Sequence record: OP778609
Length of the DNA stretch: 64,000 bases
Source: Escherichia phage A73
Direction: 5' to 3' (one strand)
The position numbers and the translations under genes are program-made. The notes beneath the pieces are model-generated. The model was not told the origin of the DNA, made no database searches, and saw only the letters and a list, made by a program, of their open reading frames with translations. Every line of letters starts with the position of its first letter. Positions within the stretch are counted from its first letter, which is position 1. This document shows positions 2,215 to 13,250 of the stretch, in pieces.

Positions 2215-3390
2215 TCAAAACGGAATATCGTCGTCAAAATCCATATCATCTACAGACATATTTACATGTCCTTCAATATCAGGGGTAGGTGAATCTTCTG
2301 CTGACGGAGTTAACTGCGGTTCCGGCTCAGGTTTCTTTTCCTCTTGCTTAGGAGTTGAAGCACCGTTACGGATCTTATCTTCCAATTGACAGATGAATCG
2401 GAAATTCTCTTCAGTCTTAGCAATAAAGGTTTCGATATTGTCACGACCCCAACGGGCAGAAAGAATGCCACACTGGCCTAAACGAGCACCGAAAGAGTAA
2501 TCATCCATAGATTTAAACTCTTCACGCAGTTTTGCTTTGATCGAATCCATCGCTGCAAGAACTTGTTCTACGATCACACCCTGATTTGCAATAGTTTCAT
2601 CAGGGAACATTGCATCGGTAATAGATAGTGCATTACCTAAACGAATAGGTAGATCATCTTTACCTTTACCTGAACGTGATCCTGTTCCAGTACTTGCACC
2701 TTTTGGACCGTAAGCTTTAAAGCCTGTAACCGTACCATCATCTGAACGAACACCTGCAATACGACCACCTTCTGTAATCTGACCCGTCTGTTCATCAGTG
2801 AGGTTTACAGTAACTTCTGTGCCGTCTTCCAGCTTAACAACTACCTTATTGCCTTCGATAGATGTGATATCACCATAAATCTTCTTAGCTGCACCACCAG
2901 ACGGCTTTTGCTGCTGTTGGGAACCACTTGATTGCTGCTGTTGCTGACGAGGCTCACGAGCACCGGATGCGTCAGTAATCTTGATACGTGCTTTCTTACC
3001 TTCTGTAGAAGAACCTTGACTACCATCTTGTTTGGTATAGGTCTTGATAACAACAGGTAAACGAATTTTCATACCCTCTTTAAGATCGGTGTAACCACCT
3101 TCAGGATTTTTAATCTGGAACTGATTCTCATACTTCAGATTTTTAACTTCACCCTCACCAAAAGAAATCCATGCTTGATCTTCACCTTCTTTAAGAAGAA
3201 CCGCATAGCGGTGGGTATTGTTAATGCTTTTCTGCTGACCAGTATTCTTGTCTTTGAAGGTAGTCACTCGTGGGCTACCATCTTCATTAATACGTTTGAT
3301 CATGATACGTTCAATCGTACCTGCTGCAATGTTTACTGTGGTATCGGAAACAGCATCGTATACAGCATTGATAACTTTAACTTCAGACAT
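2215..3390 (-). CDS. ssDNA-binding (SSB-like) protein with E. coli SSB-type acidic C-terminal tail
   Basis: 391 aa; C-terminus MDFDDDIPF matches the E. coli SSB tip; Gln/Gly/Ser-rich linker; N-terminal domain not confidently recognised as a canonical OB fold. Confidence 0.65.
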   Translation of the reverse strand: MSEVKVINAVYDAVSDTTVNIAAGTIERIMIKRINEDGSPRVTTFKDKNTGQQKSINNTHRYAVLLKEGEDQAWISFGEGEVKNLKYENQFQIKNPEGGYTDLKEGMKIRLPVVIKTYTKQDGSQGSSTEGKKARIKITDASGAREPRQQQQQSSGSQQQQKPSGGAAKKIYGDITSIEGNKVVVKLEDGTEVTVNLTDEQTGQITEGGRIAGVRSDDGTVTGFKAYGPKGASTGTGSRSGKGKDDLPIRLGNALSITDAMFPDETIANQGVIVEQVLAAMDSIKAKLREEFKSMDDYSFGARLGQCGILSARWGRDNIETFIAKTEENFRFICQLEDKIRNGASTPKQEEKKPEPEPQLTPSAEDSPTPDIEGHVNMSVDDMDFDDDIPF

Positions 3391-8605: not shown

Positions 8606-8983
8606 CTATACTCCAAATGTGGATTTGATTTCAGCAATAACCTCATGCACATTGTTTTCGTTTACTTCAAATGTGTAGGACGTTGGTTTAAGGAACGTCT
8701 GAGGTGAAACATTAACAAAGAATTCAAATTCATCATTAAAAATTTCAAAGTATTTTCCAGGTGTTGATTCTTGGCTTTTGAAAACAGTACCATCTTCCAT
8801 AGTAACAGAAGAAACAGATTTTTCACCAAGGGTGTATGTTTTTAGCTCGTCAACAACGAAACTGGGGCCGTGGCGACGGAGTATTTCAACCATAGTTCGG
8901 TTAGCTCCACAAATACCAGTACGATTAATAAATAACTCTTCACACCGAGGATTGAGAATATAAGTTTTTCCTACTTGCATCAT
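8606..8983 (-). CDS. hypothetical protein, tandem paralog family member 1
   Basis: 125 aa; starts M(M)QVGKTYILNP; RBS AAGGAG; similar to the next two genes. Confidence 0.55.
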   Translation of the reverse strand: MMQVGKTYILNPRCEELFINRTGICGANRTMVEILRRHGPSFVVDELKTYTLGEKSVSSVTMEDGTVFKSQESTPGKYFEIFNDEFEFFVNVSPQTFLKPTSYTFEVNENNVHEVIAEIKSTFGV

Positions 8984-8993
8984 TACAATCTCC

Positions 8994-9353
8994 TTATGCT
9001 AAGTTAAATGTGGATTTGATCAGGTCAATAACCTCTTGTGCGTTGCTCTCCGACACAGATACCTGAATAATTTTAAGGTCGCTGACCTCTTCAAAGTATT
9101 CGAACTCAGATTCACGAAGTTCAAAGTACATTGCCCCACAGCCCACACTGAATGAATCACACCCTACAGCACCATCTTCTGTTGTGATGTTATTAACATA
9201 CTCATCACCTTCGATCATGCTCATGTTGTTAACAATAAATCGTGGCCCGTGCTCATCCAGAAAAGAAACAATCTCGTGATTGTAACTTGGGTCAGCCTGA
9301 ATAAATTCTTCTACGAGTTTTGGATTAAGTTTATAAGTTTTTCCGACTTCCAT
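8994..9353 (-). CDS. hypothetical protein, tandem paralog family member 2
   Basis: 119 aa; MEVGKTYKLNP ... HGPRFIVNN ... SNAQEVIDLIKSTFNLA. Confidence 0.55.
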   Translation of the reverse strand: MEVGKTYKLNPKLVEEFIQADPSYNHEIVSFLDEHGPRFIVNNMSMIEGDEYVNNITTEDGAVGCDSFSVGCGAMYFELRESEFEYFEEVSDLKIIQVSVSESNAQEVIDLIKSTFNLA

Positions 9354-9364
9354 CTTTGTTCTCC

Positions 9365-9739
9365 TTACGCCAGGTTAAAGGTAGCTTTAATCAAATCTAA
9401 AGTTTCTTGTGCATTACTACGAGAGACGGCAACCTGAATAATAACAGGGTCTTCATCTTCCCCGACTTCTTTGAAGAAGGGAAATTCACTCTCTGCAAGT
9501 TCAAAGTATACACACTTGTTACCTTCGCAGTCGTGAAAAACGTCACTACCTAAAGTACCATCTTCAAATATGACATTGTTAACATATGCAACATTATCAT
9601 AGAAGTGGGTGGTGTTGACAACAAATTTAGGACCGTGCTTATAAATAAGGTCAACCAATTCTTGATTGTAGCTAGGGTCCATATTGATAAAAGCTTTTTC
9701 TAAGTCTTTATTAAGAATGTAAGTTTTTCCGATTTCCAT
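9365..9739 (-). CDS. hypothetical protein, tandem paralog family member 3
   Basis: Start moved to the internal Met (MEIGKTYILN) with RBS GAGGAG by paralog alignment; track ORF extends to 9826. Confidence 0.5.
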   Translation of the reverse strand: MEIGKTYILNKDLEKAFINMDPSYNQELVDLIYKHGPKFVVNTTHFYDNVAYVNNVIFEDGTLGSDVFHDCEGNKCVYFELAESEFPFFKEVGEDEDPVIIQVAVSRSNAQETLDLIKATFNLA

Positions 9740-9816: not shown

Positions 9817-9840
9817 AGAAAACCACCCTTCGGGGTGGTT
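9817..9840 (-). terminator. rho-independent terminator
   Basis: ACCACCCTTCGGGGTGGT hairpin with a T-run on the minus strand, after the polymerase 3' segment. Confidence 0.6.
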
Positions 9841-9847
9841 TAAATTA

Positions 9848-9994
9848 CTAGTGGCACGCCCCCCAGTTCATCCCTGTGAGGTATTCACCTGTTATGTGGA
9901 CAGGAGATTTCATCATTCGTGCTGCTTGCTCTACACAACGAACAACCATCTCTCCAACTGGACAATACATGATCGTGTAGATTCCATTCTCATC
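9848..9994 (-). CDS. DNA polymerase A, C-terminal segment (motif C Asp-Glu to C-terminal His)
   Basis: The last 48 aa of track ORF 9848-10198 (DENGIYTIMYCPVGEMVV...GMNWGACH) match the remembered T7 gp5/Pol I C-terminus including the terminal His; continues exon 1, which ends ...YYH. Confidence 0.6.
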   Translation of the reverse strand, partial: DENGIYTIMYCPVGEMVVRCVEQAARMMKSPVHITGEYLTGMNWGACH

Positions 9995-10919
9995 AGGATC
10001 ACACTTAAACTTCCCTTCTTTCACACAATGACCATCCAAGATCATTTTCTTAGCCAAGCAAGCTTCTACAAATTTCTTCGCGTCAGCTTCGTTGTCAAAG
10101 GTCCAGGTCTTCTTGAACTTGTGCGGTACTTCAAGCTGGTATTCATCCAAAAGTTTAACGAGGTCGTTACTCTCGCCCACATCATTACATGTTGCCATAC
10201 GTTTTCACATATGGATCGGACTATATCACCATCCTTTTCAGGATGCTCCCCATTTCGACGGCACTTGCTCGCCTACGCCTCTCGGCTAGTCTCTGAACGT
10301 TAGGACCATGTGTAGTCACAAGAGATGTGTGTCCAGTTTTTACGGATTTTTATGGACCTTACCACGTTGTAAGGATAACCCATATCCCGAATCTGTGCAC
10401 TTCCATAACCTTGCCCCAGGAAGTTGCAAATCTCTCTAACCTCTTCTTCGGTAACTATACTTCTGGCGTTATCAACCCCTGTTGCTGAACGACATTTATC
10501 AGCAAAGGTTTTCTTGATATTTCCACCACGAGTTGTCCATTGGAGGTTTGAATAGTGGTTATTCCTTTTGTCAGGCCACTTATGATCAACCTCCGGCAAA
10601 CCTTCAGGGTTTGGTACAAAACACTCTGCCACCAAAACGTGAACAGCCTTTGTAGTCGTCCTTTTGTTGAGATACAGACTTACAATAAGATACCCACGTC
10701 CATTATCAACTGCCGCCATTGGTTTCCCTCGACGACCTATAATGGTCCCGTCTTCATAAACCTTGTAACCGAAATAATCTTTATATTCCACATGATCCTC
10801 TTCGCTGCTGATTAACATAGTCTCATACTAACTCACACTTGAATTAATATCAACCTTAGTCTTCCAGCAATTAAAGGAGTTTTCGATGTGAGTTACCTCA
10901 CAAAGCCACAATGTTACTT
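9995..10919 (-). mobile_element. intervening sequence splitting the polymerase gene (intron-like or free-standing homing endonuclease cassette)
   Basis: About 925 nt inserted between the His and Asp codons of polymerase motif C; contains an HNH endonuclease ORF. Confidence 0.55.
10300..10818 (-). CDS. HNH homing endonuclease
   Basis: 172 aa; NUMOD4-like N-terminus (YKVYEDGTIIG) and HNH motif (VDHKWPDKRNNHYSNLQW). Confidence 0.8.
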   Translation of the reverse strand: MLISSEEDHVEYKDYFGYKVYEDGTIIGRRGKPMAAVDNGRGYLIVSLYLNKRTTTKAVHVLVAECFVPNPEGLPEVDHKWPDKRNNHYSNLQWTTRGGNIKKTFADKCRSATGVDNARSIVTEEEVREICNFLGQGYGSAQIRDMGYPYNVVRSIKIRKNWTHISCDYTWS

Positions 10920-13250
10920 ATGGTAATAGATAATACGTCTAACGCCTTCATCATACCAACCTTTCTTGACCAACTGCCAGTGCAGGAGGATACCCACCAA
11001 GTCAAACAGTGCAGCACCACCATTCTGCTGATAAGCATTAAGCAATGAGTGTTTGGAACGAGTGTAGATCTTACGTCCATCAAGACCGTAGATGAATCGC
11101 TTACCGTTAGCTTCCCAAAACTTCTCTAATGCTTCTTTACGACCTTTCAAGCCGATGTTGCTATCCCAGAATGCGTCGATTACTGCCTGGGCCTTCTCAA
11201 GAGTGATCCCCAGCATTGATGCAATCTTCGCTGCCTGTGCCCCGTACATAATTCCGTATGTCACACCTTTACCTTCACCACGAGAAACCTTCTTCCCTGC
11301 CGCTTTGGTATACGCTTCTGCGTTTCGGGAGTGAGCATCTCCAGATTCCATGATACGAAGATAAGCACCGCCATCGAAATCATAAGCGCCCCATGCTGCG
11401 ATCATACCTTCTAGGTTTGAACCGTCGATACCTACCTGATATTTACCCTCAGAGGCTCTGAATAGTTCACGCATCTCTTTACCGAGAAGAACTTTCTCAT
11501 CCGGCTTAGGTACGTTTGCTACGATCGTATGCTTACGACGACCTGTGTTAGTTATTCCACTATAACGGGCCGGAAGTTTACCGTCAACTCGTAGACGTGG
11601 ATGGTTAAGCCATCCGGTATCAACCTTCTCTTCTTTCAGCGGGTCAAGAACAGATCGTCGGTTACGTAAAGACAGCCATTTAACAATCTGTTTAGCCATT
11701 TCACCATCTACTCGCTCAAGGTTAGGGCAAAGACCCTGTTGATCCTTAAGTTGTGGAGATGTAGGTAATGCACGAGCTTTCTTACGGAAAAACTTGAACA
11801 TCTTTTCTTTATCTGACCACTGCTTAGGTGTGATCGCCAAGCTTTTCAGAATCAGATCACGATACTCCGTCTGATCCAAATCTTCAATGTATTGACGAAC
11901 AATCAGATCAACTTCACTATCGGGACGTTGTTTCTTGAACTGATCTTTAGTTGCATCCTTTGTACGCCAAATTGTTGGGACCCATCCTGCATCACGGATC
12001 AGGAACTTCTTAACGTCGTCCTGGTTACCAATACGCATCGGAATCATAATGTCCGGCATCTTTTGTTCTTTGATATCCATCAAAGCACGAGCCATATCTT
12101 CCGGCGGCAAAGGAACAAGCCCTTGCTGCTTAACGTTTTGTGCACGGATAAAATCACCCATTTTGGATTCGTCCTCTACACCGTGTTCAACACAATACTT
12201 GATCGCGGCAGCAGTAAGAGATCCGTCAGCCTTAAACGGCTTACTTGGTGCACCTTTAAATTCCAAGGCTTCCCAATTGATATTATAACCTAACTTCTCT
12301 AACCATTTCCAACCTGTACCGGAAAGAGATCCATCACCCTTGAAAGGTTTGGATGGGAATGTCGGTTGTGCTGATTTCGACATCTCTTTCTTCGGCAACT
12401 TAGGTTCAACCTCTAACTCAATGTCAGTCATCATCTTATCGATACGATCACGAAGCTTGAGTGCTTTTTCTTCATCAAATGAAACACCCTGAATTTCTTG
12501 CTCAATCATCAGGTAGTCAGTCAACATACCTCGACGCAGGGCATTCTTCCAGTTGATCATTTTATACTTCTTCTGATCTTTGTCTGTTTCATCCTTAAAC
12601 ATGAAGCGTTTATCATCCGGCATGGATTCACAGGAGATCTCTTTCATCAGAGCATCCCACACCATTTCGTTGATAATTACGTCTTCAATAATACGATCGC
12701 AATACTTCCAAAGTGGAAGGCCACGCCAATCTTCAATCGCCACTTTCTGGTTAGCTACTCGCATACCCCAAGCTTCAAGCCCGTGTGGCCCTACAGGCTT
12801 CATTTTACCTGTGACGGGGTTCTTTACCATCTCAGGACAACCGCGAGGCAGAGGGCGATCTGGATACAATGTACGGGACATTGAAAGTGTATCGAAGATG
12901 GTTACTTGTTTACCATTGATCGTCCCCATGCAACCAGGGTCTGCAAACATATCGTAAGTTGTTCCTAGCATCTTCTTAAACAACTGGAGGTCATAGCCGA
13001 AGATGTTGTGGATAGCAACTGCTTTAGGCTCGGTAACGAACCATTCGTTTAATTCTTCAAGGGTGCGGATCTTGAAGTTTTTACCTTTAGATTGGATAAA
13101 TTTAACAGCTTGATCGTAACCTTCTCGCTGTGGATCAAGAAAGATGTTCCAGTTATCTTTTTTGTACTCTTTAAACAAGATGCAGTGGATTAGATCAACT
13201 TCTGTCAACAGACCATTAGCTTCCGCATCTCCAATAAATAAGCCTTTCAT
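10920..13250 (-). CDS. DNA polymerase A (T7 gp5-like), N-terminal exo domain plus polymerase domain through the His of motif C
   Basis: 3'-5' exo motif GDAEANGL; motif A GIDGSNLEGM; motif B KGVTYGIMYGA; tail GLDGRKIYTRS...NAYQQNGGAALFDL; the ORF stops two codons after the motif C His. Confidence 0.85.

Follow-up and report, generated by a model that had tools for sequence, protein, structure and literature searches.

How is the DNA polymerase of Escherichia phage A73 made, when its open reading frame stops inside the catalytic site? In the stretch analyzed here (64,000 nucleotides of record OP778609, referred to as the window), all genes of the split-polymerase region lie on the minus strand. 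The T7-like family A polymerase frame at 10914..13250 (-) ends ...GVRRIIYYHK*, two codons past the His of motif C, and the Asp-Glu of this motif in family A polymerases is catalytic and essential. A second frame downstream (9848..10198 (-), 116 aa) ends GMNWGACH. A preliminary description of the locus had recognized both frames and had correctly set the 5' edge of the intervening insertion at 10919, but it placed the 3' edge at 9995, doubted that the insertion was a group I intron, and suggested that the polymerase may be made as two polypeptides. Our analysis very strongly favors a different answer: the T7-like family A polymerase gene of this Vequintavirinae phage is interrupted at YYH|DE by a self-splicing, mobile intron of group I, subgroup IA2.

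The edges of the insertion were fixed by alignment to the intron-less alleles of Escherichia phage UPEC06, A7_1, and POP15, in which YYH|DEYQ is uninterrupted (UPEC06 reads ...RRIIYYH|DEYQLEVPHKF...), leaving no positional ambiguity. Together with Rfam RF00028 and covariation, these alleles define an intron of 772 nt at 10148..10919 (-). Its 5' start, AAGUAA, brings an in-frame stop two codons in, and its 3' end, CUUUUG, places the omega-G at 10148. Exon 1 (10920..13250 (-), 777 codons), delimited from the open reading frame list, the UPEC06 alignment, and Pfam DNA_pol_A, terminates in ...RRIIYYH with CAU at 10922..10920 as its final codon. Exon 2 (9848..10147 (-)) comprises 99 codons and a stop (DEYQLEV...GMNWGACH*) and matches the PHROG 8888 DNA polymerase family with E = 2e-48; the alignment with an intact polymerase that had been proposed as a check shows this downstream segment to be collinear with the UPEC06 C-terminus. 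Removing 10919..10148 yields an 876-aa frame that is collinear with the UPEC06 polymerase, equal to it in length, and separated from it by 6 substitutions. The two exons differ from UPEC06 at 101 nucleotide positions but in just 6 amino acids, the mark of purifying selection. In the spliced product, motif C (...riiyYHDEyql) aligns to the ...mawVHDEiqv of T7 polymerase structures, and the product carries the two features expected of a family A enzyme, the motif C His-Asp-Glu and a C-terminal His (...WGACH). The predicted spliced RNA junction is ...UAUUACCAU|GAUGAAUACCAG..., and the corresponding junction-spanning peptide is predicted to be IIYYHDEYQLEVPHK. Directly 3' of the polymerase stop, a consensus scan returned a terminator-like hairpin (9820..9841 (-); a run of T after a 9-bp stem), which is a pattern match only.

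The alignment also explains how the junction had come to be misplaced. The preliminary description joined YYH to DENG and held that this restored motif C exactly. DENG is instead a fortuitous second Asp-Glu, 51 codons into exon 2, and the true motif is YYH-DEYQLEV, aligned to VHDEIQV of T7. The intact UPEC06 gene puts the 3' edge at 10148 and the insertion at 772 nt rather than 925 nt, an error of 153 nt, and the C-terminal piece encodes 99 residues rather than 46. Joining YYH to DENG would delete 51 conserved residues that are kept in intact homologues; it also gains nothing in the Pfam DNA_pol_A match, which ends at profile position 279, whereas with the true splice, and only then, the match crosses the junction and reaches position 345. 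Two features that had been raised against an intron follow from the same misplacement. The U reported before the 3' junction was found there because the junction had been set at DENG, and the intron in fact ends in G (10148); the supposed 68-codon in-frame extension of the downstream frame consists of 51 genuine exon-2 codons and only 17 intronic ones. The case illustrates how a fortuitous second Asp-Glu can mislead a junction deduced from motifs alone.

A structure-aware group I search, another of the checks proposed earlier, matched Rfam Intron_gpI (RF00028) at 39.7 bits, far beyond chance whether the region (E = 3e-8) or the whole window (E = 1.2e-6) is considered, and the covariance model alignment spans model positions 1-253. 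At the 5' splice site, P1 (10906..10923 (-)) is formed by exon CCAU and intron AA (10923..10918) with the guide UUGUGG (10911..10906), the exon-terminal U10920 pairing with G in the splice-site U·G wobble; all six pairs are invariant in 10/10 orthologues. P10 is provided by guide CAUU (10913..10910), which forms 4 bp with GAUG of exon 2 (10147..10144), and by direct reading CCAUGAUG, the sequence of the joined exons, can pair along its full length with CAUUGUGG if G·U pairs are allowed. The hairpin P2 (10887..10902 (-); UGUGAG-GUAA-CUCACA) follows, and the block 10806..10879 holds the 5' strand of P3 (10879..10875 (-)) and P4 (10869..10864 with 10811..10806 (-)), which encloses P5-P5a/b (10861..10814). 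The P6a stem pairs 10799..10790 with 10311..10302 (-).

The 3' half of the catalytic core (10219..10298 (-)) contains the 3' strand of P6, P7, P7.1, P7.2, the 3' strand of P3, and P8. P7 pairs GACUA (10291..10287) with UAGUC (10223..10219) on the minus strand; the 3' strand of P3 lies at 10250..10246 (-) and P8 at 10245..10230 (-), so that the P3/P7 pseudoknot core is present. Introns of subgroup IA2 are recognized by two additional helices, P7.1 and P7.2, which lie between P7 and P3' and are connected by a G-U-A linker (PMC3428280). This signature is found at 10286..10257, which reads GCCGAGAGGC-GUA-GGCGAGCAAGUGCCGUC, with P7.1 at 10286..10277, the GUA linker, and P7.2 at 10273..10257 (-). 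The final block (10148..10213 (-)) folds into P9 (10213..10196, with a GAAA loop), P9.1 (10192..10179), and P9.2 (10176..10158). The Rfam model does not cover P9.1 and P9.2 and so stops 48 nt before the 3' splice site. The nominal 3' end that it gives (10196, the last base of an AUG at 10198..10196) was accordingly rejected as a model-edge artefact, and a similar shortfall of 48-50 nt is seen in JEP1 and KP12, where the exons fix the true ends.

Covariation was assessed on a hand-drawn P1-P9.2 structure, using 10 Vequintavirinae orthologues of the intron that share its insertion site. Paired cells amounted to 93.5% across P1-P9.2, compared with 33-43% in slid controls, a difference biased upward by the structure having been drawn on the A73 sequence. 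The count of pairs changed on both sides, which this bias does not explain, was 31 compared with 1-6 in the slid controls, and none of 500 shuffles reached the observed covariation values. By helix, P2 shows compensatory double changes in 5/6 pairs with 100% of cells paired, P3 has 3/5 compensatory pairs and is 100% paired, and in P7.2 all cells are paired and 4 pairs are compensatory. Pairing reaches 98-100% in P3, P7, P7.2, and P8 and 100% in each of P9, P9.1, and P9.2, with compensatory changes in all of these helices. P4 and P5 are weaker (72-83% paired in the cross-lineage alignment).

These elements are consistent with a conventional splicing pathway. The polymerase gene would be transcribed as one pre-mRNA, in which exon CCAU pairs with the internal guide to form P1, including the U·G pair, and an external guanosine bound in P7 would attack the 5' splice site. 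The guide would then align exon 2 through P10 (GAUG), allowing the 3'-OH of exon 1 to attack after the terminal G at 10148. The resulting mRNA is expected to encode one 876-aa polymerase in which motif C (YYHDEYQLEV) is intact. On unspliced RNA, translation would halt two codons into the intron and give a product without the catalytic Asp-Glu. We infer catalysis in A73 by homology: the CB7_50 intron of Pectobacterium phage vB_PatM_CB7 was reported to splice in vivo by RT-PCR and Sanger sequencing (Buttimer et al., 2020; PMC7344957), and it is the orthologue of the A73 intron, with the identical site YYH|DEYQ and a 3' core that is 95% identical. Phage vB_PatM_CB7 is itself classed in Certrevirus, Vequintavirinae.

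Could the polymerase nonetheless be a split enzyme whose two polypeptides are translated from unspliced RNA, the C-terminal piece starting at AUG 10198 and assembling non-covalently with the other? That in-frame AUG opens a 116-aa frame containing all of exon 2, for which the predicted N-terminal peptide would be MATCNDVGESNDLVK, and a separate 'DNA polymerase' CDS has been called in W70, LTH01, CR9, PBES 02, and others. A precedent also exists in the mobE-split NrdA of Aeromonas phage Aeh1, in which a non-splicing HNH insertion gives a two-piece enzyme (cited in PMC7344957). Aeh1 and A73 share the placement of an HNH gene between the halves of an essential gene of replication or nucleotide metabolism. 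The mobE-type insertion lacks a ribozyme and yields two polypeptides, however, whereas the A73 insertion is a complete covarying group I ribozyme and its downstream half has no translation signals of its own: the AUG (10198..10196) falls within the 7-bp P9 helix, on its 3' strand, and no Shine-Dalgarno sequence precedes it (GUGAAAACGU-AUG). Moreover, a stop codon interrupts the in-frame intronic segment in the orthologues from FV3, JEP1, and WalterGehring, and the 17 codons of this segment vary by RNA-compensatory rather than synonymous changes. The break would part His from Asp-Glu inside one catalytic motif. Given these points, the strong selection on the RNA fold, and the reported splicing of the CB7 orthologue (PMC7344957), we consider a two-piece polymerase very improbable. 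Both this suggestion and the earlier doubt over a group I intron arose because the 3' junction had been misplaced; every hallmark is present at the correct one.

Equally improbable, in our assessment, is a decayed and splicing-defective remnant, in which case the polymerase would be a pseudogene or the phage would rely on another polymerase. What speaks for decay is the Rfam score, 39.7 bits against a gathering score of 50. This copy, which formally falls short, bears a 497-nt open reading frame inserted in P6, and the insertion would account for the sub-threshold score: among same-site orthologues, the ORF-less introns of JEP1 and KP12 score 73.7 and 69.8 bits (70-74 bits when rounded), and that of PVP-SE1 scores 54.4. 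All core helices are intact in the A73 copy, its 3' core closely matches that of the CB7 intron, and purifying selection acts on both exons. In addition, W70, which is essentially identical to A73, has been propagated as an isolate, and its genome is complete. The least probable alternative holds that the insertion is an intein, or that a free-standing endonuclease gene has entered between two polymerase genes that were separate to begin with. It draws on the abundance of inteins and free-standing HNH genes in these phages (PMC7344957) and on a free-standing HNH gene adjoining the polymerase start in PBES 02, POP15, and CB7, but the sequence already refutes it, since the stop two codons into the insertion and the separately initiated HNH frame leave no continuous intein frame, a complete group I ribozyme surrounds the frame, and ORF-less versions of the same insertion exist.

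Turning to the gene carried by the group I intron, we located an HNH homing-endonuclease gene in the P6a loop (10300..10791 (-), 163 aa). The description of the insertion as encoding an HNH/NUMOD4 endonuclease holds for its HNH part (frame 10300..10818 (-)); for NUMOD4, the protein gave no Pfam match even at E <= 10, HNH_3 alone being found (24.0 bits, cut-off 24.8). The protein matches PHROG 59 (E = 6e-33) and I-HmuI (PDB 1U3E; E = 2e-5), with DH...NN...N conserved (also N-L). Translation likely starts at GUG 10791, which is preferred because it is preceded by AAGAGGA and because a 163-aa protein is annotated in PBES 02, AV124, and LTH01. The start of the longest frame, AUG 10818 (172 aa), was rejected, as it sits in P5'/P4' and lacks a Shine-Dalgarno sequence. 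A search for an intron-internal promoter for the HNH gene gave no excess of sigma-70-like matches in the region (4, compared with 2.7 ± 1.6 in shuffles); a single 9/12 match lies at 10853..10825. The A73 protein is 69-73% identical to those of PBES 02, CR9, and AV124, 51% identical to that of FV3, and approximately 30% identical to the 127-aa HNH protein of CB7 and phiTE.

The distribution of the intron argues for mobility. Escherichia phage W70 and the window share 99.9% identity. Among relatives that are 94-97% identical across the region, W70, LTH01, and A5-4 carry the intron and UPEC06 and A7_1 lack it, and 7-8 synonymous differences at positions -28..-4 co-segregate perfectly with its presence. 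The intron-less target of the UPEC06 type reads ...CGCCGTATCATTTACTATCAT|GATGAATACC..., and the spliced target of the W70 type reads ...AGACGTATTATCTATTACCAT|GATGAATACC.... These patterns would fit a homing event. Both the activity of the endonuclease and its target are inferred: in a mixed infection, polymerase alleles that lack the intron would presumably be nicked or cut close to the insertion site by the I-HmuI-like HNH enzyme, and repair would then copy in the intron and about 25-28 bp of the adjoining 5' flank.

A mobile group I intron at this site is already known biology, and A73 adds a further case of a homing intron that targets the best-conserved codons of a gene essential to a phage. 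The identical position also holds an intron in phiTE, CR9, PBES 02, AV124, SSE121, FV3/rV5-type phages, PVP-SE1, KP12, and JEP1. Relative to A73, these Vequintavirinae introns have an identical P1 and internal guide sequence and a 3' core that is 70-95% identical, and in most copies the frame sits in P6a, as it does in A73. Their endonuclease cargo differs between lineages: an I-HmuI-like HNH gene occupies P6a in A73, CR9, PBES 02, AV124, and FV3; P6a of the phiTE and CB7 introns holds a distant 127-aa HNH gene; PVP-SE1 has a LAGLIDADG gene in a different loop, beside P7.1; and the KP12 and JEP1 introns have no endonuclease gene. One tentative reading, to which we give a little less than an even chance, is that a single ribozyme lineage at a single site has been invaded repeatedly and independently by unrelated endonuclease genes. 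If so, the motif C intron would offer a natural test of the idea that mobile introns arise by an endonuclease invading a ribozyme. Varied cargo on one ribozyme lineage makes a useful comparative series and leaves current understanding unchanged.

Group I introns in phage family A polymerase genes are also known outside this subfamily. The introns of the T7-like polymerases of PhiI and W31, accessions AY769989 and AY769990, compared here by their published description, are reported to lie at Pol I site 881 (PMC3428280), which corresponds to the motif C His, the codon interrupted in A73. They share with the A73 intron a family A T7-like host polymerase, subgroup IA2 with P7.1/P7.2, and an HNH frame in P6a; the host phage is a podovirus for PhiI and W31 and a large myovirus for A73. 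The PhiI/W31 and Vequintavirinae introns may be homologous or may target this site independently; in the former case, the intron would have crossed between podovirus and myovirus polymerase genes. Introns of the I-HmuI type likewise interrupt phage family A polymerase genes, and the A73 endonuclease is a detectable I-HmuI homologue; unlike the A73 intron, they occupy Pol I site 674 in the fingers (PMC3428280) and are found in phages of Gram-positive hosts.

The main value of the finding lies in annotation. The real product is very probably a single polymerase of about 876 aa whose motif C is rebuilt by RNA splicing, yet GenBank lists the polymerase as two CDSs in W70, LTH01, A5-4, CR9, PBES 02, phiTE, FV3, and rV5-type phages. 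The rV5 polymerase has reportedly been described as a protein of 775 aa. In the GenBank copies of W70, LTH01, and A5-4, the locus consists only of two polymerase CDSs and a hypothetical protein. In the BASEL phage WalterGehring, the polymerase CDS is annotated as a two-piece join across the intron.

The element in the window is a mobile IA2 group I intron that interrupts motif C of a phage family A DNA polymerase and carries an HNH homing-endonuclease gene. As the preliminary description, which a model had made from the sequence alone, recognized in the open reading frames, a polymerase frame that stops two codons past the motif C His (778 codons, 10914..13250, ending ...GVRRIIYYHK*) is followed on the minus strand by an HNH frame with a weak Pfam HNH_3 match (172 codons, 10300..10818) and then by the polymerase C-terminus (116 codons, 9848..10198, ending ...GMNWGACH*). 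Escherichia phage W70, a ~137-kb myovirus of the Vequintavirinae, shares 99.9% identity with the window. Escherichia phage UPEC06, which lacks the insertion, is 95.6% identical over the shared parts of the region; its polymerase is a single uninterrupted gene of 876 codons reading ...GVRRIIYYHDEYQLEVPHKFKK..., and the gene is also unbroken at the insertion point in A7_1 and POP15. By aligning the window to these intron-less alleles, we delimited an insertion of 772 nt (10919..10148, minus strand), whose edges are without positional ambiguity because the bases differ on either side. Exon 2 (10147..9848) encodes 99 residues starting DEYQLEV, and joining it to exon 1 (13250..10920) yields an 876-aa protein with six substitutions relative to the UPEC06 polymerase. 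The best match among solved structures is T7 DNA polymerase, with ...riiyYHDEyql of the query aligned to ...mawVHDEiqv.

The 5' junction proposed earlier was correct. The 3' junction was off by 153 nt, YYH having been joined to DENG, a second, coincidental Asp-Glu that lies 51 codons further on than the true junction. Two puzzles arose from this misplacement, a U before the junction and a 68-codon extension of the downstream frame. The final intron base (10148), which directly precedes the real 3' junction, is G; 51 of the 68 codons are genuine exon and only 17 are intronic. Alignment to an intact polymerase, suggested as a check, identifies the downstream segment as the polymerase C-terminus, collinear with UPEC06. 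With the true splice, the Pfam DNA_pol_A match crosses the junction and reaches profile position 345, whereas with the DENG junction or exon 1 alone it ends at position 279.

A structure-aware group I intron search, also suggested, matched Rfam Intron_gpI (RF00028) at 10929..10196 (minus strand) over the whole model (39.7 bits, E = 3e-8), the sole RNA-family match in the 64-kb window, and P1–P9.2 are present. A 497-nt ORF in P6, which the model has to span, keeps the score under the gathering threshold of 50; orthologous same-site introns without an ORF reach 73.7 bits (JEP1) and 69.8 bits (KP12). In P1, exon CCAU and intron AA pair with UUGUGG, the exon-terminal U forming the canonical U·G wobble, and P10 is formed by the neighbouring guide bases CAUU with GAUG of exon 2; once ligated, the exons (CCAUGAUG) are complementary along their full length to CAUUGUGG, G·U pairs allowed. 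Core helices P2, P3, P4-P5-P5a/b, P6/P6a, P7, P8, P9, P9.1, and P9.2 can be read in the sequence, and GUA links P7.1 to P7.2, an arrangement that PMC3428280 treats as a signature for assigning subgroup IA2. The doubt expressed about a group I intron, drawn from the misplaced 3' junction, was unwarranted. The Rfam match ends at the G of an AUG (10198..10196), 48 nt short of the true 3' splice site, and 48–50 nt before it in every member of the intron lineage, since the model covers neither P9.1 nor P9.2. That terminal G falls on the AUG where gene callers start a spurious 116-aa 'DNA polymerase' CDS.

Many Vequintavirinae carry an insertion at the YYH|DEYQ site (PBES 02, CR9, AV124, SSE121, FV3/rV5-type phages, WalterGehring, phiTE, CB7, PVP-SE1, KP12, JEP1). 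We aligned ten same-site introns with the ORF loops taken out and counted pairs for the P1–P9.2 structure. Standard pairs filled 93.5% of cells, versus 33–43% with 3' partners slid 1–3 columns, a difference inflated by drawing the structure on the window sequence. The compensatory-pair count is not so inflated: both-side changes occurred in 31/77 pairs, versus 1–6 in slid controls. None of 500 shuffles matched the observed percent paired, the pairs or cells changed on both sides, or the covariation score; the number of further pair types was not above shuffles (290/500). P2, P3, P7, P7.2, P9, P9.1, and P9.2 were 100% paired and P8 98.3%, with compensatory changes in all; P4/P5 aligned less cleanly across lineages (72–83% paired). 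The rV5/FV3-type polymerase intron also occurs in 14 records (among MG065635-MG065690) with the label 'Campylobacter phage' and C. jejuni as host; their genomes are rV5-like in size (~135–143 kb) and look like those of Vequintavirus coliphages, so the host labels may be wrong.

This kind of element is ordinary and already documented. Using RT-PCR and Sanger-sequenced cDNA from Pectobacterium infected with CB7, Buttimer et al. 2020 (PMC7344957) showed that the HNH-containing introns of the CB7 polymerase gene are spliced, among them the one that carries CB7_50. This ORF is flanked by CB7_51 and CB7_49 and sits exactly at the YYH|DEYQ site, and the 3' core of its intron is 95% identical to that of the window intron. 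With a same-site orthologue in the same subfamily shown to splice, the window intron is predicted by homology to do likewise. In WalterGehring (BASEL collection), the polymerase annotation joins two CDS pieces across the same-site intron. The codon interrupted in the window, that of the motif C His, is presumably Pol I site 881. At site 881, according to PMC3428280, the T7-like phages PhiI and W31 have IA2 introns with an HNH ORF in P6a. Many GenBank records, and the '775-aa polymerase' described in the rV5 paper, cover exon 1 alone of this gene. Further upstream, where window exon 1 is unbroken, the polymerase genes of CB7 and phiTE contain a second intron with an HNH gene (CB7_52; 2457..3171 of CB7 sequence L014).

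Decay of the intron is unlikely, as all helices are intact in the window copy and W70, to which the window is essentially identical, is a propagated isolate. The earlier suggestion that the polymerase is made as two polypeptides without splicing fails. The downstream polypeptide would start at AUG 10198, which lies within the 3' strand of P9, a 7-bp helix, without an upstream Shine-Dalgarno; FV3, JEP1, and WalterGehring have a stop codon in the corresponding in-frame part of the intron; the 17 intronic codons vary by RNA-compensatory substitutions that change amino acids; and the break would part His from Asp-Glu inside one catalytic motif. An intein is ruled out because translation would stop two codons into the insertion.

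The HNH ORF of the group I intron fills the P6a loop, whose stem pairs 10799..10790 with 10311..10302. Its longest form starts at AUG 10818, within P5'/P4'. GUG 10791, preceded by AAGAGGA, is the more likely start judging from sequence and yields 163 aa, in agreement with the annotated length in PBES 02, AV124, and LTH01. The protein matches PHROG 59 (HNH endonuclease, E = 6e-33) and I-HmuI, the nicking enzyme of the SPO1 polymerase intron (PDB 1U3E, E = 2e-5), with the catalytic DH...NN...N residues aligned; the Pfam HNH_3 match, at 24.0 bits, falls just short of the 24.8 cut-off. The PHROG 59 and I-HmuI matches uphold the HNH half of an initial 'HNH/NUMOD4' assignment, and the Pfam search found no NUMOD4. 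A free-standing HNH gene overlaps the polymerase start in several Certrevirus phages, including intron-less POP15 (PBES 02, L004 4208..4720; POP15, L007 4827..5339; CB7_54, L014 1..482); it is only distantly related to the window intron HNH (32% over 93 aa, E = 5e-4), and none lies upstream of the window polymerase.

Intron cargo differs among relatives. Salmonella phage PVP-SE1 (L008 401..1319) has the same ribozyme and site as window 10148..10919 but carries a LAGLIDADG endonuclease gene, which is located after the P7 5' strand, adjoining P7.1, and not in P6a, there a short hairpin. The phiTE and CB7 introns encode a distant 127-aa HNH (~30% identity to that of the window), and those of KP12 (343 nt) and JEP1 (328 nt) have no ORF. 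Such differences suggest that one intron lineage may have been invaded repeatedly and independently by endonuclease genes.

Of the relatives that are 94–97% identical in this region, W70, LTH01, and A5-4 carry the intron, and UPEC06 and A7_1 lack it. Comparison of the window with UPEC06 shows 101 differences over 2631 exon positions; eight of them, all synonymous, lie at -28..-4 from the insertion site, and the 180 nt upstream of this patch contain no difference. Between intron-containing and intron-less close relatives, the patch (listed as window 10892..10948; exon 1 -28..-4) holds 7–8 synonymous substitutions and tracks intron presence perfectly (5/5 phages). Other polymorphisms do not, intron-containing A5-4 having downstream variants in common with intron-less A7_1. 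The exon ends ...UACCAU in 11/11 intron-containing alleles and ...UAUCAU or ...UACCAC in 3/3 intron-less ones. This pattern fits either 5'-flank co-conversion in the course of homing or selection acting on P1 pairing and the target of the endonuclease, and the patch may be a co-conversion tract or the site that the endonuclease recognizes.

Directly downstream of the window polymerase lie three tandem paralogous genes of ~120–125 aa (8606..9739, minus strand: 8606..8983, 8994..9353, and 9365..9739; mutual identity 36–54%, E 1e-19 to 1e-43). All start M-x-(I/V)-G-K-T-Y, end ...IK(S/A)TF-(NLA/GV), and are without Pfam annotation. The intron-less Escherichia phage A7_1 has four extra small hypothetical genes just downstream of its polymerase (L003 554..2079), where the window has none, and the annotated polymerase CDS of A7_1 has 8 additional N-terminal codons.
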